Shown piece after piece: positions 13,409 to 22,366 of a DNA stretch of 64,000 nt. The position numbers were made by a program, and so were the translations under genes. The stretch's first letter is position 1. Each line of letters opens with the position of its first letter. Origin of the DNA: an uncultured delta proteobacterium (lineage in GTDB: Bacteria > Desulfobacterota > Binatia > UBA9968); the NCBI GenBank assembly GCA_963737905.1, contig CAVTUQ010000022.1:138061-202060 (forward strand), read 5' to 3'. The notes beneath the pieces are model-generated. The model worked only from the letters and a program-made list of their open reading frames with translations, was not told the origin of the DNA and did not search any database.

Positions 13409-13717
13409 TGAACTCCTTTCAATCGCCCACACTGCGGTTATCCCTGCTTCTGCGCCTACAGAATAGAGTTCCGCCGCAGGCTGAGGTGGCAAGAATGTCT
13501 GGGAATCGCTTCGCAGGGAGAGGTCTATTAGACTCTTGAGCCGCTTCCGTCGCTATTTCAGACTGGATGATAAATTCAGAGAGCAATGTACGTGTTTTTT
13601 TTAAAGTCGTCAATCAAATCTCCAAACATTCCAAACATTAAGTCTTCGATTACGCCCGGTTTACGCAGCGGAGGCTTTGTGGTAGTTTAACGCAACTAAT
13701 TCAGGGAGTTGTTGTTT

Positions 13718-14464
13718 ATGTCCGGTCATTCGAAATGGAGCACCATCAAGCACAAAAAGGCGGCCAAGGACGCAAAGAAGGGAAGGCTCTTCACCAAGCT
13801 CATCAAGGAAATTACGGTGGCGGCTCGGGTGGGCGGCGGTGACATCAACTCCAACCCGCGTTTGCGCACGGCCGTGATCACGGCAAGAACCAACAGTATG
13901 CCGGGAGACAACATTGAGCGGGCGATCAAAAAGGGCACGGGAGAATTGGAAGGCGTCTCATACGAAGAAATCCAGTACGAAGGATACGGCCCGGGAGGCG
14001 CGGCCATCTTGGCGCAGGTGTTGACGGACAACAAAAACCGTACGGTCTCTGAGATACGGCGCTTGTTTGTCAAACACGGGGGAAATTTGGGAGAGACCGG
14101 TTGTGTGGCGTGGATGTTTGACAAAAAAGGTGTCATCACGGTGGAAAAATCACAAATCGATGAAGACCGCTTGATGGGTTTGGTGCTAGAAGCGGGTGGA
14201 GAAGATGTCAAGGACGAGGGTGATCTATTTGAAGTCGTGACCCAACCGGAGGACTTCGAAAGAGTCAAAGAAACACTCGACCGGGAAAAGATAGCTCTTG
14301 CTAGCGCGCAAATCACGATGGTCCCGAAAAATACGGTCACCGTCGGCGAAAAGCATGTGGAACAGATTCTCAAGTTGACCGAAGAGCTCGAGGATCATGA
14401 TGACGTGCAAAACGTTTCGGCAAATTTTGATATCCCCAGCGAGTACCTCGAAAAGGCGAGCTGA
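13718..14464 (+). CDS. yebC: YebC/PmpR-family protein
   Basis: [37 protein letters not shown]. Confidence 0.95.
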
Positions 14465-15042
14465 TGGAGAGAGCCCCGGACCGTTCGGCTCGCCGGGCCG
14501 TGATGAGTCGCAGAATCCTGGGCATCGATCCGGGATCGGTGGTGACCGGATGGGGCATCGTCGAGGCGGTCGGAAATTCCTTGAGTCATGTGGCCTGTGG
14601 CACCATCGCGACCGTCGGTGCCCAAGGGCAAGGGGCTCGGTTAAGCCGCATCTACAGAGGCATTCAGGAAATCATCGTGCGTTATCGTCCGCACGGAGTC
14701 AGTCTGGAAAAGGTTTTTTTTGCGCGCAATCCGCAAAGCGCTCTTAAACTCGGCCAAGCGCGCGGCGTGGCCTTGCTGGCGGCCGCAGAAAACCAACTGG
14801 ATGTCTACGAATACAGTTCAAACGAGATCAAGTCGGCGGTGGTCGGGTATGGCCATGCGACCAAAGAGCAAGTGCAGAAAATGATCGCGGCGCTTCTCCA
14901 TGTTTCAGAGAAGATGGCCGCCGATGCCGCCGATGCTTTGGCGGCCGCGGTTTGTCACGTTCATCGGCAGGCCTTTCAAGCCCGTATCGTAGAAGCTGCG
15001 CCGGACTGGCGGCCTGCGGTGCGCCGGCGCAGGGTGCCATAA
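14464..15042 (+). CDS. ruvC: Holliday junction resolvase RuvC
   Basis: ILGIDPG, E.VFF..N..SALKLGQARG, IKSAVVGYG.A.KEQV, DAADALA; start may be 14503. Confidence 0.95.
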   Translation: MERAPDRSARRAVMSRRILGIDPGSVVTGWGIVEAVGNSLSHVACGTIATVGAQGQGARLSRIYRGIQEIIVRYRPHGVSLEKVFFARNPQSALKLGQARGVALLAAAENQLDVYEYSSNEIKSAVVGYGHATKEQVQKMIAALLHVSEKMAADAADALAAAVCHVHRQAFQARIVEAAPDWRPAVRRRRVP

Positions 15043-15094
15043 GCGGCTCCGGTGATTGGGGAAGCCCTGTCCTGAGAGAAATCCAAGATTCACT

Positions 15095-15688
15095 GTGATT
15101 GCGCAAATTAGCGGAACCCTGGCGCATAAGTGGCCGGGAGAAGTCGTCGTCGATGTCGGGGGCGTCGGCTATCAGATATTTATCCCGCTCAACGTTTTCT
15201 ATCGACTGCCGGACGTGGGCGGTTCCGTCAGTCTTTACATTCATACTCATCTAAGGGAAGATGCGCTGCAGTTGTTCGGCTTTCGGGCAGCGGAAGAAAA
15301 ACAGGTCTTTCTGTTGCTTATCGGCGTTTCCGGCATCGGTCCCAAGTTGGCCGTCAATATTCTTTCTGGAATTCCGGCGGAGGAATTGGTACAGGCGGTC
15401 AAGGATGGCGATCAGCTGCGGCTGGTGTCGATACCGGGAGTCGGCAAAAAGCTCGCGGAACGTATGATCGTCGAACTCCGAGATAAATTCACGACGCTGC
15501 AGTCTCGGCCATCAGAAGCGGTTACTCAAAGCAATGATTCTCAACTCATTCAGGATGCGGTGTCGGCGCTGGTCAATCTGGGTTATAGAAAAGCGGAAGT
15601 CGAGAAAAACGTGCGCGAGATGAGCCAGACGGGCAAACGGACTTTGGAAGAAGTGATCAAGGACGTGCTCCGGCGAATGAGCCGCTAG
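15095..15688 (+). CDS. ruvA: Holliday junction DNA-binding protein RuvA
   Basis: [46 protein letters not shown]. Confidence 0.95.
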
Positions 15689-15696
15689 AACCCGCT

Positions 15697-16767
15697 ATGC
15701 CGAAACTTGACGACAGGAGCGAGACCTCGATGCCGGCGCGACCCGTGGCGCCCAAGCTGGCCGAGGACGATGCCAACTATGACGTGAACTTGCGGCCTCG
15801 CGGTTTCGATGAATACGTCGGTCAGGAACAGGTGAAGGAGAATCTTAAAGTCGCGATTGCCGCGGCCCGCGGGCGCAACGATGTGTTGGATCATATTTTG
15901 TTTCATGGACCGCCGGGGTTGGGCAAGACATCGCTCGCCTACATTATCTCGCGGGAGATGGGCGTGAACATCAAAGCGACCTCGGGGCCGGTGGTGGAGC
16001 GCCCGGGCGATCTTGCCGCGCTGCTCACGAATCTCGAAGACGCCGATATACTTTTTATCGACGAGATTCACCGGCTGAACCACGTGGTGGAGGAGGTTCT
16101 TTACCCGGCCATGGAAGATTACCAGATCGATATCATGATAGGTCAGGGTCCTGCGGCCAGGTCGATGAAGCTGCCTTTAAAGCCGTTTACTTTGATCGGG
16201 GCAACGACGAGATCCGGTCTTCTTACCTCGCCGCTGCGCGATCGCTTTGGACAAATTTTTCGGCTGGACTTCTATTCCACTCAAGCCCTGGCACAAATCC
16301 TTAGGCGATCCGCCTCCATTCTGGGTGTCGCCGCAGAAGACGAGGGCACGACCGAGATCGCGCGCCGGTCCCGTGGCACTCCGCGAATCGCGAACCGGCT
16401 CTTGCGCCGGGTGCGCGATTTTGCCCAGGTCAAGGCGAGTGGCACGATCACGAAATCCGTTACCCAAGAAGCTCTGCAAATGTTGGAAGTTGACCCCATC
16501 GGTCTCGACAAAATGGACACGATGCTCCTCTTAACCTTGATCGACAAGTTTTCGGGCGGCCCTGTTGGAATTGAAACACTGGCGGCGGCGATCGGAGACG
16601 AAAAGGACACGATCGAGGACGTGTACGAGCCGTTCTTGATTCAAGCGGGGTTTCTCAAGCGAACGCCTCGCGGCCGGGTGGCGACGGAGCTGGCCTACGA
16701 ACATTTCGGGCGCAACCCCGCATCGCCAAAAGGAACCAGTTCGAAGAATCAACCCAGCCTGTTTTGA
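15697..16767 (+). CDS. ruvB: Holliday junction helicase RuvB
   Basis: [49 protein letters not shown]...RTPRGR. Confidence 0.97.
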
Positions 16768-16814
16768 AATGGGTTGCGCGGCAGTAACAAAATAACGACG
16801 GGCGAAATACGCAA

Positions 16815-17027
16815 ATGACCGGATTGGGTAAGACGCTGATCTATATCGGAATCGTGTTGATCATTCTTGGACTGATCGTTTCGATGGCTGGCAAGATTCC
16901 CTGGTTGGGGCATCTTCCGGGCGATATCACCATCCAACGGGATCGGTTCACCTTCTATTTCCCATTGACCACCTGTATCCTTATCAGTGTGATTATAACG
17001 CTTGTCCTTTATTTCTTTAGACGGTAA
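16815..17027 (+). CDS. DUF2905-family small membrane protein
   Basis: Two hydrophobic segments around LGHLPGDI...FYFPLTTCIL. Confidence 0.85.
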   Translation: MTGLGKTLIYIGIVLIILGLIVSMAGKIPWLGHLPGDITIQRDRFTFYFPLTTCILISVIITLVLYFFRR

Positions 17028-17065
17028 AATTTGGCTGTCTTTTTCTCTCCTTAGAAAGTCTGCTC

Positions 17066-19297
17066 ATGGAAAGTTCGGGCACCGTCGAGTCGATCGAGGC
17101 ACGCCTCAAGCTGGAGGAAGCCAAGCGCCGCAAACGTGAGGGTTGGGTGATCCTTGCCACTACCCTCATGGTATTGGCGTTTGCGTTTTTTGAAGTGCAG
17201 TTGCCCGAGACGGCGCCAGAGTACTCTTTGGGCAACAATATCGCTTTCTTTCTCTTGATCAATGTGAACGTTATCCTCCTGGCGCTGCTGGTTTTTCTCG
17301 TTGTCCGCAACTTGGTCAAACTTGTCTTCGAACGCAAGAGAAGGATCCTGGGTTCACGCCTACGGGTGCGGCTAGTATTGGCATTTGTTGCGCTATCGCT
17401 TGTGCCCACGTTGCTGTTGTTCGTCATTGCGGGCGGATTCGTTACCCGTTCTTTTGAAAGATGGTTTGATCTTCAGGTGGAAAACGCGCTGCAAGGCTCC
17501 TTGGAGATCGGCCAGACTTATTATCAAAATTCGGCCAACAATGCCTTGTTCTATGCGCGGCAGCTGAGTCAACGCATGACTCGAGAGGGGCTCTTCGAGG
17601 CTCATCGACTTGGCGAGCTCAAGGAGTTCATCCAAAACAAACAGCAGGAGTATAACCTCGGAACCGTTGAATTGTTCTCGCCTGACTATCGATCACTGGT
17701 TGTCGCGTTCAACGAACAAGTACCGACGGGAGTCACCATCAAACCTGAAAAGGAGTTTCTGAATCGGGCGCTCCGGGGTCTGGAAGTGACGCGAACCCAA
17801 GCGTTTGGAGAAGGGGACATTATCCGTGGAGGCGTTCCGATCTATAGTGGGGACAAGCGCGTGCTCGGAGTCGTGGTGGTCGACTATTATGTGCCCAAAA
17901 GCATCACTAAAAGAGCCTTGCAAATTTCCCGTTCCTACGAACAGTACAAACATTTGATGTTTCTCAAGGCGCCGATCAAAAATAGCTATATTTTGACCCT
18001 TCTCCTCATCACGTTGGTGATTATCTTCGCGGCCACCTGGTGTGGGCTTTATCTTGCCAAAGGCATCACGGTCCCGATCCAAAAACTTGCGGAAGGAACC
18101 CATGAAGTTGCCCAGGGAAACTGGGACTACAAAATCGATTCCGGAGGAGACGATGAGATTGGGACTTTGGTGGAATCGTTCAACCAGATGACCCGGGATC
18201 TCAAGCAGATCAATTTAGAACTGGAACAGAGAAAGCGCTTTGTGGAGACGCTTCTCGCCAATATCACGGCAGGCGTGATCGCGGTGGATCCCGCGGGAAG
18301 AATTACGACGTGGAACAAGACCGCCGAGGAGATGTTGGGAGTCGAGGCGGTGGGCGTGCTCGGAAGAAATCAGGAAGAGGTCTTTCAGGGCGGACGGCTC
18401 CAAGTCATGCGCGACATCCTGGAAAGCGTGAAAGACCGGGAGAGCGTGGAGCGCCAAATTAAGATTCCTTTACCGGACCAATTGCTTACCGTGGTGGTGA
18501 CGGCGGCAACCTTGCGCGACGATGAGGGAAAGACCATGGGGGTCATGATCTTCCTCGAGGACATTACCCAGATTCAAAAGGTGCAGAGAATGGAGGCCTG
18601 GCGCGAAGTCGCGCGGCGCATTGCTCATGAGATCAAAAATCCGCTGACGCCCATCCAATTGTCCGCCGAGCGGCTCCGAAAACGGTACGCCAAATTGCTC
18701 GAGGGCAACGGTGCGGTTTTGGATAAGTGTACTTCGACCATCATCCAGCAGGTGGACGAGCTGAAAAATCTCGTCAATGAATTTTCTCATTTCGCTCGAT
18801 TGCCTGCGGCCCACCTCACCACTAACGACCTGAACGCGATCGTTCAGGAGTCTCTGTTTCTCTTCAAGGAAGGGCATGACAAACTCCACTTCCAATTTCG
18901 CAACGGAGATATCCCGCCGCTCGAATTGGACCGGGAACAGATCAAACGAGTGATTATCAATTTATTGGACAACGCGGTGGCGGCCGTAGGAGAAAATGGC
19001 GAAATCAGGATGACCACGAGTCATGATCCCTCTCGGGGAGTCGTCTTTTTAGAGGTCGCGGATAATGGCTGTGGTGTGGCGCCGGAAGTAAGAACCAGAA
19101 TTTTCGAGCCTTATTTTTCCACCAAAAAGAATGGCACTGGTTTGGGACTCACCATCGTCAGCCAGATCATCGAAGATCACCGGGGCTACATCCGGGTGCG
19201 ACCCAATGAACCCCAGGGGACCCGGTTGACGATCGAGTTTCCCGTGCCAACGGAGAGTCAGCTTGTCGAGAACAGGAAGAAGGCAATGCATTCTTAG
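17066..19297 (+). CDS. ntrY: NtrY-like sensor histidine kinase (TM helices, periplasmic domain, HAMP, PAS, HisKA, HATPase)
   Basis: WF...VE.AL, DEIG.L..SFNQMT, AWREVARRIAHEIKNPLTPIQLSAERL, NLLDNA, DNGCG, FEPYFSTK, GTGLGL. Confidence 0.9.
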   Translation: MESSGTVESIEARLKLEEAKRRKREGWVILATTLMVLAFAFFEVQLPETAPEYSLGNNIAFFLLINVNVILLALLVFLVVRNLVKLVFERKRRILGSRLRVRLVLAFVALSLVPTLLLFVIAGGFVTRSFERWFDLQVENALQGSLEIGQTYYQNSANNALFYARQLSQRMTREGLFEAHRLGELKEFIQNKQQEYNLGTVELFSPDYRSLVVAFNEQVPTGVTIKPEKEFLNRALRGLEVTRTQAFGEGDIIRGGVPIYSGDKRVLGVVVVDYYVPKSITKRALQISRSYEQYKHLMFLKAPIKNSYILTLLLITLVIIFAATWCGLYLAKGITVPIQKLAEGTHEVAQGNWDYKIDSGGDDEIGTLVESFNQMTRDLKQINLELEQRKRFVETLLANITAGVIAVDPAGRITTWNKTAEEMLGVEAVGVLGRNQEEVFQGGRLQVMRDILESVKDRESVERQIKIPLPDQLLTVVVTAATLRDDEGKTMGVMIFLEDITQIQKVQRMEAWREVARRIAHEIKNPLTPIQLSAERLRKRYAKLLEGNGAVLDKCTSTIIQQVDELKNLVNEFSHFARLPAAHLTTNDLNAIVQESLFLFKEGHDKLHFQFRNGDIPPLELDREQIKRVIINLLDNAVAAVGENGEIRMTTSHDPSRGVVFLEVADNGCGVAPEVRTRIFEPYFSTKKNGTGLGLTIVSQIIEDHRGYIRVRPNEPQGTRLTIEFPVPTESQLVENRKKAMHS

Positions 19298-19314
19298 ATG
19301 AATTTAGGAAGGCG

Positions 19315-20619
19315 ATGAAAGAACGGCCGGCACAGAAAACGATACTGATCGTCGATGACGAGGACAAAGTTCGGGAGTCGGTCCGAGAAGTTTTGACCGA
19401 CGAGGGCTATCGCGTTGTGGACACCGCCGACGGCGCTCGCGTGCTTGAATTGATTGAACGGGAAAAGCCCGGGCTCGTGCTGCTGGATATTTGGATGCCG
19501 CAGATTGACGGCATCGATCTGCTTAAGCAGATTAGGAGCAAGGAGCCCGCGATCCACGTAGTCATGATTTCAGGCCATGGGAATATTCACACGGCGGTGA
19601 CGGCGACCAAATTCGGAGCGTTCGATTTTATCGAGAAGCCGCTGTCTTTAGATGCACTGCTGTTGACGGTGCAGCGGGCCTTAGGTGACTATTCGCCGCG
19701 CCGCTCCAAAGGGGTCACCGGTAACGGAGGCAGAAAATCGAAAACCGGGAAGCGCCCACCGGCGACAGCAAGACGCGGAAACTCGAATCCATCCATCAAG
19801 CAACGCACCTTGAAGAAGAGTGTTGTGACATCGGGGCAAGGACTTCACTCGGGAATGAAGACCGGTCTTATTCTCCACCCGCTACCGCCTAATAGTGGGA
19901 TTCTCTTCACCGGCATTTCTGGTGATGTGCAGGTACCCGCCCACCTGGATCATGTGGGATCGACCGGATATGCGACTTCACTCCGCGCCAAGGGGTTTGC
20001 CGTGGGGACGGTGGAGCATTTATTGGCCGTGCTGCATAGTTACGGTATCACCAATCTGCTCGTCAAGGTTCAAGGGGAGGTTCCGATCCTGGATGGTTCC
20101 GCCCTGGAGTTCTGTAACCTCATTGACGACGTCGGCGTGCAGGAAGAAAGGGAGGAATGGTCCGAAATAGTGGTTGATCGACCGTATCGAATCGGGAGCC
20201 CCGGGGGTGAGTCGATCACCGTCGAGCCTGCGGAAGTCTTCTCGGTGCATTATGTTTTGAATTATCCCAAGCCGGTGGGCATCCAAGAGCATACTTACAC
20301 CCACAGAGGTCCCACCTTGTTTAAGGAAGAAATCGCGCCGGCCCGAACCTTCGGCTTTTTGAGGGACGTCGAACAGCTGCAACAAGCCGGCTTGGTTAAT
20401 GGCGGCAAGCTCAACAATTGCATCCTCATTGATGACGAGAAAATCGTCAATACGGATCTACGATTCCCCAACGAGTTAGCGCGCCACAAGATCCTCGATA
20501 TTATGGGTGACTTTTACTTACTCGGGAAGCCGGTTCGAGGTGCCATTACCGCTCACATGACGGGCCACTCCGACAATATTGCCCTGCTGCGAGAGCTGCG
20601 AAGCGGGATGGGTCTTTAG
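19315..20619 (+). CDS. lpxC: Fusion of an NtrX-like receiver domain (aa 1-124), basic linker and LpxC UDP-3-O-acyl-GlcNAc deacetylase (aa 163-434)
   Basis: REC: ILIVDDE, LLD58IWMP, ISGHG, FIEK108P. LpxC: QRTL, GQGLHSG, TVEH, EVPILDGSA, IAPARTFGF, LRF..E.ARHKILD..GD, GH418. Single uninterrupted ORF. Confidence 0.92.
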   Translation: MKERPAQKTILIVDDEDKVRESVREVLTDEGYRVVDTADGARVLELIEREKPGLVLLDIWMPQIDGIDLLKQIRSKEPAIHVVMISGHGNIHTAVTATKFGAFDFIEKPLSLDALLLTVQRALGDYSPRRSKGVTGNGGRKSKTGKRPPATARRGNSNPSIKQRTLKKSVVTSGQGLHSGMKTGLILHPLPPNSGILFTGISGDVQVPAHLDHVGSTGYATSLRAKGFAVGTVEHLLAVLHSYGITNLLVKVQGEVPILDGSALEFCNLIDDVGVQEEREEWSEIVVDRPYRIGSPGGESITVEPAEVFSVHYVLNYPKPVGIQEHTYTHRGPTLFKEEIAPARTFGFLRDVEQLQQAGLVNGGKLNNCILIDDEKIVNTDLRFPNELARHKILDIMGDFYLLGKPVRGAITAHMTGHSDNIALLRELRSGMGL

Positions 20620-20669
20620 CAGAGATCGGCAACTTTGCGCTCTCTGCACCCTTTCCAAACAACAAAAAT

Positions 20670-21119
20670 ATGGTCTCTTCTGTCTCTTTTCCACGACTCT
20701 TTACAGTGGGCGAAGCGAATGTGCTGCTGCCCACGGTGCGTAGGTTGATGGAAAGGATCGAGGAAAATATCAAGCGACTGAGAAACCAAAGCAAAACCAT
20801 CATCCGCGATGAACAACTCGATCCAGACGCCATGGATTTCATGGACCGATTGCAGGAACATAATGAAATTGCTCGGATCGTGGCAGAAGTCAAAGGCTGG
20901 GTGGAAGAGATCCAAAGCTATGGTTGCATCTGCAAGGGAGTGGAACAGGGTCTCGTCGATTTCCCGTGCCTACTAGGGACGGAAGTGGTGTTTCTCTGCT
21001 GGCAGTTGGGTGAGCCGACCGTCAGCTATTGGCACCGGATCGAAGACGGCTTTGCGGGGCGCCGCGCCTTGCTTGATGTCGAGAAAACGGAATCCGATAA
21101 GAAGAGTCCTTACCACTAA
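20670..21119 (+). CDS. DUF2203-family protein
   Basis: FTVGEAN.LLP, K..E.GLVDFP, LCW..GE....WH....GFAGR. Confidence 0.85.
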   Translation: MVSSVSFPRLFTVGEANVLLPTVRRLMERIEENIKRLRNQSKTIIRDEQLDPDAMDFMDRLQEHNEIARIVAEVKGWVEEIQSYGCICKGVEQGLVDFPCLLGTEVVFLCWQLGEPTVSYWHRIEDGFAGRRALLDVEKTESDKKSPYH

Positions 21120-21193
21120 TCGGTCCGTCAATTTTCCGTTCATCTCCAATCGTGCTTGTTTCGATTCAATCGGTCGGTAGGTTGGGAGGTTTT

Positions 21194-22366
21194 ATGATCG
21201 CCCAGGATGAAGACGCGCTATCGCTCCGGGTCAAAGACGAAGCACAGCGCCTGGGTTTTGAGTTGGTCGGAATTTCGCCGGTCAAACTTCCGCCCCATGA
21301 GGAGTCGTTCGCCGAGTGGCTGCGGCGGGGCTTCTCGGGACAGCTGGACTATATGAAACGAACCGAGGATCTACGACGTGATCCCCATCGACTCGTCCCT
21401 TGGGCGGTGTCCGTTATCTCGGTCGGAATGAATTATTATACGCCTTTTTCCCGCCCGCGAGCGTCGGATCAGCCAAAGGGTTGGATTTCCCGTTACGCGT
21501 GGGGCGATGATTACCATACTCTAATCAAAAACCAGTTGGAGTCTCTCCTCAACGGCATTCGACGGATTTGGAACGGACCCGTGGAAGGAAAAGTCTTTGT
21601 GGATTCCGGTCCGGTGCTGGAGCGGGAGTTTGCCGGCATCGCGGGTGTCGGCTGGATCGGCAAAAACACCCATCTCATTTCCCCCCAAAGGGGCTCGTGG
21701 TTTTTTTTGGGAGAACTTTTCCTCAGCATACCGCTCGGTTATGATCGGCCGATTCGCGATCGGTGTGGAAAATGCGATCTGTGTTTGAAAGCCTGCCCCA
21801 CAGGGGCTTTCGTGGGACCCTACGTGCTGGACGCGCGCCGCTGCATTTCCTACTTGACAATTGAGCTCAAAGGCCTGATGCCTCGCCATCTTCGTCCGCT
21901 TGTAGGAAATCACATCTTTGGCTGCGACATCTGTCAAGAGATCTGTCCGTATAACGTAAAGGCTCCACCAACCCGGGAAAAGGCGTACGCTCCAAGAGAG
22001 GGACTGTATGCACCCGATCTGATTCCCTTGCTGTCTCTAGATGAAGAGGAGTTTCGGCACAGATTTCGTGGCAGCCCGATCCTTCGCGCAAAGCGAAAGG
22101 GATTATTGCGCAATGTTGCGGTTGCTCTCGGGAATACGAGAAGCCGTGCGGCCACGCCTGCGTTGATTCGGGCGCTCGATGATGAAGAAATGCTAGTGCG
22201 AGCCCACGTCGCTTGGGCGTTGGGTCAGATCGGTTCGCCAGAGGGAATGAACGCACTGGAAAAAAGGTTGCGCATCGAGAGCGATCCCACGGTCCGGATC
22301 GAAATCGAGGATGCGATCACGGAAGCCAAGAAGACCGTTAGCCCCGTTCCGAGCGTACAAGAATGA
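21194..22366 (+). CDS. queG: Epoxyqueuosine reductase with C-terminal HEAT-like repeats
   Basis: ISRYAWG.DYH, VDSGPVLER, GWIGKN, CGKC..C..ACPT, RCISYLTIE, FGCDICQ..CPYN, RNVAVALGN. Confidence 0.93.
   Translation: MIAQDEDALSLRVKDEAQRLGFELVGISPVKLPPHEESFAEWLRRGFSGQLDYMKRTEDLRRDPHRLVPWAVSVISVGMNYYTPFSRPRASDQPKGWISRYAWGDDYHTLIKNQLESLLNGIRRIWNGPVEGKVFVDSGPVLEREFAGIAGVGWIGKNTHLISPQRGSWFFLGELFLSIPLGYDRPIRDRCGKCDLCLKACPTGAFVGPYVLDARRCISYLTIELKGLMPRHLRPLVGNHIFGCDICQEICPYNVKAPPTREKAYAPREGLYAPDLIPLLSLDEEEFRHRFRGSPILRAKRKGLLRNVAVALGNTRSRAATPALIRALDDEEMLVRAHVAWALGQIGSPEGMNALEKRLRIESDPTVRIEIEDAITEAKKTVSPVPSVQE

Follow-up and report, generated by a model that had tools for sequence, protein, structure and literature searches.

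A receiver domain fused to LpxC next to an NtrY-like kinase gene in Binatia: a candidate route for direct phosphorylation control of lipid A synthesis

LpxC is the committed enzyme of lipid A synthesis and a leading antibiotic target. Here, a 64,000-nucleotide stretch of DNA from an uncultured soil bacterium of the class Binatia (lineage UBA9968; assembly GCA_963737905.1, contig CAVTUQ010000022.1, positions 138,061 to 202,060 of the forward strand), referred to below as the window, was analyzed with regard to one gene, which encodes a response-regulator receiver domain (REC) and a complete LpxC in a single polypeptide and directly follows a gene for an NtrY-like sensor histidine kinase. This arrangement suggests that outer-membrane lipid output could be switched directly by phosphorylation, and not by the degradation route of Escherichia coli.

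In architecture, the closest described systems are the enzymatic response regulators of the CheB type (as well as the REC-GGDEF proteins PleD and WspR and the REC-HD-GYP protein RpfG), in which, as in the fusion, an N-terminal receiver is followed by a flexible linker and a C-terminal enzyme. The unphosphorylated receiver of CheB occludes the active site, and phosphorylation relieves the occlusion. The fusion differs from CheB in its output, which is a zinc amidase of lipid A synthesis, and in its kinase, which is NtrY-like and not CheA. A natural fusion of LpxC has also been described with FabZ (NCBIfam NF009667), the LpxC half of which matches the window protein at 205 bits (cut-off 465); in that case a pathway enzyme is fused C-terminally, implying metabolic coupling, whereas here a signalling domain is attached at the N-terminus.

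With respect to the control of lpxC itself, three systems can be compared. In E. coli, control by FtsH, LapB and YejM is likewise post-translational and centred on LpxC as the committed step (accessible text of PMC12444477), whereas the fused protein lacks a C-terminal degron-like tail and the signal proposed for it is phosphorylation, not degradation. In alphaproteobacteria, NtrY has the same architecture as the window kinase (NtrY_N, HAMP, PAS, HisKA and HATPase_c), and in a study of Brucella abortus NtrX is an unusual enhancer-binding protein, which has a variant GAFTGA motif and acts as a repressor (PMC6158489); the long relatives of the fusion discussed below resemble it, being matched end to end by the NtrX model and having lost GAFTGA. 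Loss of NtrYX in Rhodobacter sphaeroides raised lpxC mRNA 8.8-fold and increased lipopolysaccharide (LPS), an effect reported as indirect (PMC7240162). Compared with NtrYX, the window protein has neither AAA+ nor helix-turn-helix (HTH) domain, and the alphaproteobacterial effect on lpxC is transcriptional as well as reportedly indirect. In Desulfovibrio vulgaris, lpxC was the single DAP-chip target of the two-component regulator DVU2934, and in Syntrophobacter fumaroxidans lpxC adjoins an operon orthologous to the DVU2931/DVU2934 one (Rajeev et al. 2011, accessible text of PMC3333781). Likened by this description, the lpxC next to the S. fumaroxidans operon matches the lpxC-ntrY-regulator clusters reported below, although the control described for D. 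vulgaris acts via DNA binding and transcription.

The modes of control named in the accessible text of 'The regulation of lipid A biosynthesis', a review from 2025, are proteolysis, partners of the LapB type and transcription; NtrYX and ChvGI are mentioned there only as transcriptional influences, and the words 'fusion', 'fused' and 'response regulator' are absent from it (PMC12444477). A preliminary description of the locus, made from its sequence, had noted that no characterised example was known, and the literature searched agrees as far as its accessible text goes: no publication on a receiver-LpxC protein was found under LpxC with receiver, NtrX, output domains or sigma-54, and a search for Binatota with lipopolysaccharide returned nothing relevant. 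Enzymatic response regulators are known; within the reach of these searches, what is new is LpxC as the output of one, together with a sigma54 circuit that can be seen to have collapsed into the enzyme.

The fusion gene and its product

The fusion gene (19315..20619, forward strand) is a single open frame of 434 codons plus stop, which begins 17 bp after the kinase gene (17066..19297, forward strand), exactly as it had first been read; the spacer (19298..19314) contains a ribosome-binding site, AGGAAGG, 5 nt before the ATG. The receiver domain (residues 10-119; 19342..19671) matches Pfam Response_reg (PF00072) with E 2.5e-32 and 111.8 bits (cut-off 30.2) over profile positions 1-110 of 111, and the best NCBIfam model of the N-terminus is NtrX (NF051870), of whose 452 positions 3-126 are matched with a score of 137 bits (cut-off 600). 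The best solved relatives of the domain are 4d6x and 5m7n, which we take to be structures of Brucella NtrX. Its phospho-site comprises the acidic pocket D14/D15, the phospho-acceptor D58, S86, the aromatic switch F105 and K108. Beyond a 37-aa linker (residues 124-160; 19684..19794), the UDP-3-O-acyl-GlcNAc deacetylase (LpxC) catalytic domain (residues 163-428; 19801..20598) matches Pfam LpxC (PF03331) with E 5.5e-81 and 272.4 bits (cut-off 27) over profile positions 1-266 of 268, and TIGR00325 scores 247 bits, above its cut-off of 187.25. The site residues E234, H235, T345, H391, K392, D395, D399 and H418 are all present and align with the conserved motifs of the solved Pseudomonas aeruginosa LpxC; their counterparts among the zinc ligands and catalytic residues of the E. 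coli enzyme are presumably E78, H79, T191, H238, K239, D242, D246 and H265.

The product lacks the output domains of a transcription factor. Neither AAA+ nor HTH is found in it by Pfam, and therefore it is predicted to be unable to bind DNA; its NtrX architecture is partial and scores below the equivalog cut-off, and the AAA+ domain with Walker A/B and GAFTGA that defines sigma54 enhancer-binding proteins of the NtrC family is absent. By its sequence, the protein belongs to both the LpxC family and the receiver superfamily; its receiver and its descent are NtrX-like, but it is not an NtrX. The preliminary description is borne out here on the NtrX type of the receiver, on the intact D14, D15, D58, S86 and K108, on a full LpxC with E234-H235, H391-K392-x-x-D395 and H418, and on the missing AAA+ and HTH. 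It had also proposed that LpxC could not be started separately from within the linker and that the protein stops right after the catalytic domain, both of which hold: codons 120-160 contain no in-frame ATG, GTG or TTG (the closest being GTG at V119 and TTG at L166), and only six residues follow the stretch that aligns to solved LpxC structures. Since residues 160-166 (S-I-K-Q-R-T-L) align with the extreme N-terminus of solved LpxCs, the join lies exactly at the old LpxC start (Ser160-Ile161). The linker had been called K/R/G/P-rich, which is true of the window (G7 R6 S5 P4 K4 among its 37 residues) but not of the family, in which the linker varies from 21 to 64 aa without sequence conservation and is neutral or acidic in close relatives.

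An AlphaFold2 (AF2) model of the protein, built on a 70-sequence alignment, has a mean predicted local distance difference test (pLDDT) value of 87.4 and a predicted template modelling (pTM) score of 0.85. In the model, DSSP assigns the (beta-alpha)5 order of a receiver, with strands at 9-13, 33-37, 54-58, 81-86 and 104-107 and helices at 17-29, 40-50, 66-76, 91-99 and 112-123, all at pLDDT 88-95, while linker residues 129-156 fall below 50 and are predicted to be disordered. The top Foldseek matches of the model in the PDB are all LpxC (TM on target 0.82-0.95, root-mean-square deviation 1.6-2.3), and no solved structure with both domains was found.

It is hardly conceivable that an assembly error or frameshift has united separate receiver and lpxC genes. 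Frame breaks do occur within REC or AAA+ of otherwise fused genes in a few metagenome-assembled genomes of relatives (L014, L057, L069 and L076), where they are probably assembly indels. However, none of the 120 homolog clusters listed (74-99% identity, 424-444 aa) lacks either Pfam domain, and more than 100 independent genomes carry the fusion. Logan contigs from three independent DNA studies span the junction with substitutions only and no indel anywhere across 19185-20700, an interval that one record covers gap-free with 12 substitutions. The former LpxC start is moreover now Ser160-Ile161, behind a linker without a start codon. The earlier opinion that the fusion is unlikely to be an indel artefact is in line with these data. 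In metatranscriptomes, the gene was matched by one 198-nt contig (20376-20573, 1 mismatch) and two short partial pieces, which is not enough to establish transcription or co-transcription.

The fused protein also seems to be the working enzyme. A single LpxC match was found in the assembly (87.5% complete, 6.7% contamination) by a Pfam six-frame search, and neither this search nor tblastn at E up to 10 detected a second one, so that it is the only lpxC found in the assembled part, a point that the preliminary description had marked for checking; LpxB and LpxK are both encoded. In each of five genomes of the same class that are 98-100% complete (G038, G076, G110, G143 and G174), the LpxC match is likewise a single one and is fused. 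Because it is the only match in all of these genomes, the fused protein is judged to be the housekeeping LpxC of the organism. A very improbable alternative is that it represents a regulatory paralogue or sensor and that the working LpxC is encoded in the 12% of the genome missing from the assembly. The incompleteness and contamination of the assembly would allow for this, and two genomes of other families contain both fused and unfused LpxC, namely G034 (C11 fused, C33 unfused) and G199 (C52 fused, C232 unfused; loci of both genomes L091, L146, L147 and L171), but the catalytic residues are invariant, and the failure to find a second copy in the assembly and in the five near-complete genomes speaks against it.

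Spread, conservation and kinase linkage

The combination of Response_reg and LpxC, which had been singled out as worth searching for, turned out to be widespread. A sample of 401 genomes across the GTDB phylum of the host was searched with the window protein and the best 150 matches were listed; fused LpxC was found in at least 102 of the 401 genomes, including all 14 from the class of the window. Three forms can be distinguished: a short form with one match over about residues 1-434 (59 genomes, that of the window counted), an intermediate form with the LpxC part matched in a frame of 450-497 aa (13 genomes, four of them sequence-checked and consisting of REC, a 63-64-aa linker and LpxC), and a long form with the LpxC part matched in a frame of 554-837 aa (30 genomes, 18 sequence-checked). 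The other LpxC matches listed are open frames of 277-432 aa with 37-45% identity, apart from one in G304 (57% identity) that is truncated where its contig stops and was left unclassified. Long forms comprise Response_reg, Sigma54_activat, AAA_lid_14 and LpxC in a single open reading frame according to Pfam, and they match positions 3-452 of the 452 in the NtrX model at 267-351 bits (below the cut-off of 600); the lpxC model then follows with a score that exceeds its cut-off. In intermediate forms, all that is kept is the helix after REC, 'EHRRLxxENRxLR', with the NtrC-type ENRxLR. Beyond the phylum sample, dozens of the best 150 matches in a library of 1.84 billion proteins at 50% identity are representatives with lengths of 412-505 aa or 650-736 aa, which show two matched stretches or a full-length match, and the ESM Atlas contains 17 clusters with Response_reg plus LpxC, of which the three displayed are auto-named plain LpxC. 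Together with the 120 homolog clusters and the indel-free junction, this spread indicates that the fusion is real and under selection.

Conservation was examined in 114 distinct fused proteins (89 short or intermediate and 25 long) that span about 40% identity. D14, D15, D58, S/T86 and K108 are kept in all 114 and F/Y105 in 113; on the LpxC side, E234, H235, H391, K392, D395, D399 and H418 are likewise kept in all 114, and T345 in 112. Among close relatives, the identity of REC (71-91%) is similar to that of LpxC (71-93%). This pattern bears on the possibility that the receiver is a leftover or a phosphate sink, perhaps phosphorylated without consequence for LpxC, the fusion merely securing co-expression. 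This is an improbable explanation, if one with some attraction: the AAA+ domain of long forms has clearly decayed, so that parts of the ancestral regulator do drift, and the linker is unconstrained. Against it stand the equal conservation of REC and LpxC, the invariance of the five residues of phospho-chemistry over so wide a span of identity, and the retention of REC through deletions of AAA+ and HTH that seem to have happened more than once; a useless domain of 125 residues would not be expected to persist in this manner on an essential enzyme. Eleven positions of the LpxC domain are at least 90% conserved in fused proteins and rare in unfused ones (including 184, K251, C267, Y401 and 416), with G184, K251 and C267 invariant in 93 of 93 fused domains. 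These residues might form a surface that contacts REC, or they might reflect some altered property of the enzyme.

The kinase encoded before the fusion gene has 743 aa and consists of a membrane N-terminal region, HAMP, PAS, HisKA and HATPase_c. NtrY_N, HAMP, PAS, HisKA and HATPase_c all exceed their Pfam cut-offs, NtrY_N with 31.4 bits (cut-off 23.2) over only positions 7-136 of 291; it is called NtrY-like because no NtrY-specific NCBIfam model reached its cut-off. A scan of 16600-21200 found no terminator-like site between the two genes, and the counts of sigma70 promoters and terminators in this interval were at the level of shuffled sequence. The kinase is single-copy in the genome, the next best kinase being 28% identical and only in the C-terminal half, and about 17 ordinary REC-AAA+-HTH regulators are encoded elsewhere, none of which reaches the NtrX cut-off. 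Adjacency to ntrY, which the preliminary description had proposed to test for conservation, was counted in the 104 distinct fused loci for which 2.3 kb or more of sequence precedes the gene: the gene of an NtrY-like kinase lies directly upstream in 71 of them, namely in 38/38 close relatives, 18/36 distant short forms, 15/20 long forms and 0/10 intermediate forms. The genes next to unlinked fusions are unrelated ones (purA, glycosyltransferases, rubrerythrin, Hsp20 and OmpA/TPR). All five unlinked genomes that were checked encode one NtrY-like kinase elsewhere, with 35-50% identity over nearly full length, and no receiver match was found within about 1.5 kb downstream of it in any of the five; therefore, such genomes appear to contain an orphan kinase and an orphan receiver-enzyme. 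The window receiver scores 122-147 bits (48-61% identity) with NtrY-linked regulators of other families and at most 103 bits with the best paralogous receiver of its own genome, which places it in the NtrY-partner lineage. The adjacent NtrY-like kinase is presumed to be the cognate kinase of the fused receiver.

In three same-class genomes, frames of 1007-1423 aa at L082 (G110), L083 (G143) and L084 (G076) looked like kinase-REC-LpxC triple fusions. They were rejected as stop-free high-GC DNA: the kinase lies in a different frame, and REC::LpxC has its own Met in all three.

The wider neighbourhood (13709-22366) contains, in order, a yebC-like gene, ruvC, ruvA, ruvB, DUF2905, ntrY, REC::lpxC, DUF2203 and queG. 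The order from ruvB to queG is kept in Binatia-type relatives, and ruvB abuts ntrY even in the distant locus L166. The small membrane protein DUF2905 (16815..17027, forward strand), identified by Pfam, is a conserved upstream neighbour in Binatia-type loci (ruvB-DUF2905-ntrY), and the DUF2203 protein (20670..21119, forward strand; Pfam) is a conserved downstream neighbour in close relatives; for both, synteny supports the status of neighbours.

Unfused relatives and the origin of the fusion

In at least 23 genomes from 14 GTDB families, an unfused lpxC precedes ntrY by 284-1354 nt, with both genes in the same orientation, and about 30 other genomes among the matches listed have an unfused lpxC without such an arrangement (these counts were made by eye). 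Twelve unfused loci with lpxC before ntrY (L167-L178) were examined in sequence, and nine of them show the gene order lpxC-ntrY-regulator. The stand-alone regulator is intact in all nine, with Walker A, GAFTGA (GSFTGA in L167), a Walker B motif that reads 'FLDE', a linker helix with ENRxLRQ and an HTH of the Fis type, features by which it is classified as a canonical sigma54 activator. A strict -24/-12 pattern, TGG[CT]A[CT]-N5-T[TC]GC[ATC], was matched 63-81 nt before lpxC in six of the 12 loci (TGGCAT-N5-TTGCT type, e.g., L168:315-330 and L174:328-343), and these six elements are the only strict matches within the 167,132 nt scanned; three more loci have a looser GGCA...TTGC at -62 to -105 of lpxC. 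In the lineages with such clusters, lpxC seems to depend on sigma54 and to be governed by a two-component system of its own. The unfused copy of G199, one of the two genomes with both kinds of LpxC, has kept the lpxC-ntrY adjacency and has no regulator after ntrY.

In the fused loci (113 distinct), a single strict site was found in 454,786 nt of same-strand upstream sequence, and in the window there is none within 15600-17100 or 19150-19330. The only fused locus with such a site, L127 (G181:C140), has it at -74 of a long fusion gene (L127:380-2578, reverse strand) without an adjacent kinase gene, at the same distance as the sites before unfused lpxC. It is possible that this locus represents an intermediate stage.

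The AAA+ part of the long forms shows how such a change might have proceeded. Walker A is kept, while GAFTGA and the DE of Walker B have been lost in 25 of 25 aligned long forms, and the Fis-type HTH is still visible in 20 of the 25; in two long forms, Pfam did not find HTH_8 at E up to 0.001, and the NtrX model nevertheless covers the stretch. In one GTDB family (coded f61; L090 and L129-L132), the long REC-AAA+-LpxC proteins have lost the Fis-type HTH and kept a degenerate AAA+ and lid. When arranged by their motifs, these forms make up a graded series, from an activator encoded beside lpxC, through a regulator::LpxC protein with decaying AAA+, to REC with a helix and LpxC and finally REC with a short tether and LpxC. 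In the ancestral circuit, NtrY would have acted through a sigma54 enhancer-binding regulator on a sigma54 promoter of lpxC; once regulator and LpxC had been fused, AAA+ and HTH would have decayed and then been deleted, leaving direct post-translational control in place of transcriptional control. Because unfused relatives carry lpxC-ntrY-sigma54 activator clusters with a -24/-12 promoter, the fusion looks like a dedicated transcriptional circuit that has collapsed into one polypeptide, and the unfused cluster provides an evolutionary rationale for it. When a tree was built from 114 LpxC domains, 93 fused and 21 unfused ones came to lie on opposite sides of one branch with an SH-aLRT support of 99, which is consistent with a single fusion event. 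The order from long to short is based on motif decay and not on this tree.

How the receiver may act on LpxC

What has been observed is the domain architecture and how widely it is conserved, intact sites in both halves, the gene neighbourhood, and an ancestral cluster in which lpxC has a sigma54 promoter. On this basis a mechanism can be proposed, in line with the preliminary description, according to which the kinase may tune LPS output post-translationally by phosphorylating the enzyme itself. The NtrX-type receiver on its flexible linker, together with a complete and predicted-competent LpxC, would constitute an enzymatic response regulator; the adjacent NtrY-like kinase would sense an envelope, periplasmic or PAS-borne signal and pass phosphate to D58, and the phosphorylation state of the receiver would alter LpxC output. 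The most likely route is that REC, like the receiver of CheB, packs differently against the catalytic domain, and an alternative one is a changed oligomeric state (dimerisation). That NtrY phosphorylates D58 and modulates LpxC through a REC-LpxC contact or dimerisation is considered reasonably probable. As to the sign, the balance tips slightly toward activation of LpxC by phosphorylation, because a phosphorylated activator would turn lpxC on in the ancestral circuit.

The predicted structures are relevant to the first route. A relative, L111 (414 aa, 46% identical over its full length), was also modelled with AF2 and reached a pTM of 0.90. REC accounts for about 30% of the chain and is joined by a disordered linker; the high pTM of both models nevertheless suggests that REC is confidently placed against LpxC. 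An alternative is that the receiver sets the amount or location of LpxC and not its catalysis, for instance by gated proteolysis in the spirit of RssB, CpdR and CtrA or as a tether to the membrane kinase. This explanation is unlikely, though less so than the other alternatives considered above. E. coli LpxC is classically controlled by its level through FtsH/LapB/YejM proteolysis (accessible text of PMC12444477), the fused protein has no C-terminal tail past the catalytic domain, a long disordered linker as modelled would suit engagement by a protease, and RssB is among the NCBIfam matches confined to REC. On the other hand, no protease or adaptor gene is conserved beside the fusion, the two models argue for a defined contact, and control of amount or location would be compatible with an additional catalytic effect. 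A search of the window's genome for LapB gave only a Zn_ribbon_LapB match in a frame of 57 aa, by a model that is unspecific and fires in Gram-positive controls; the match (G000:C5:55868-55951, L179) is a small zinc-ribbon protein and not a TPR-bearing LapB, a result that speaks neither for nor against the presence of LapB in the genome.

Several observations weigh against phosphorylation of D58 by NtrY as the switch of LpxC activity, or against the history proposed for it. The kinase gene is not adjacent in 33 of the 104 fused loci, including 10 of 10 intermediate and 18 of 36 distant short forms. An NtrY-like kinase is present in 366 of the 401 phylum genomes, those with unfused LpxC included; being nearly universal, its co-occurrence does not single out the fusion, and the phylogenetic profile is uninformative. 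The two AF2 models share most of their alignment, and the argument from pTM is an indirect one. Moreover, a long, disordered and unconserved linker suits a loose tether as well as it does a regulated interface. The sign of regulation differs by analogy, with an activator in unfused relatives and repression in alphaproteobacteria. Finally, when the unfused set is used to root the LpxC tree, the earliest branches are short forms from the class of the window and the long forms are nested, so that the basal short forms, at face value, disagree with an order from long to short; in this tree, the group within which the long forms are nested has 94% unstarred support, the backbone is unstarred, and the starred branches force only two to three changes.

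Taken as a whole, the chances lie just above even that an NtrY sensing the periplasm or a PAS-borne signal switches LpxC within seconds and that this system arose by the collapse of a sigma54 circuit, of which every stage has a living intermediate. A receiver on LpxC, present in no fewer than one in four of the genomes sampled from a major phylum of soils and sediments, offers a directly testable alternative to the described ways of controlling this enzyme. The family also provides something rare, a natural series in fine gradations around a single target gene, in which regulation seems to have migrated from the promoter to the protein. If the proposed mechanism is true, it would represent a new principle of LPS homeostasis.

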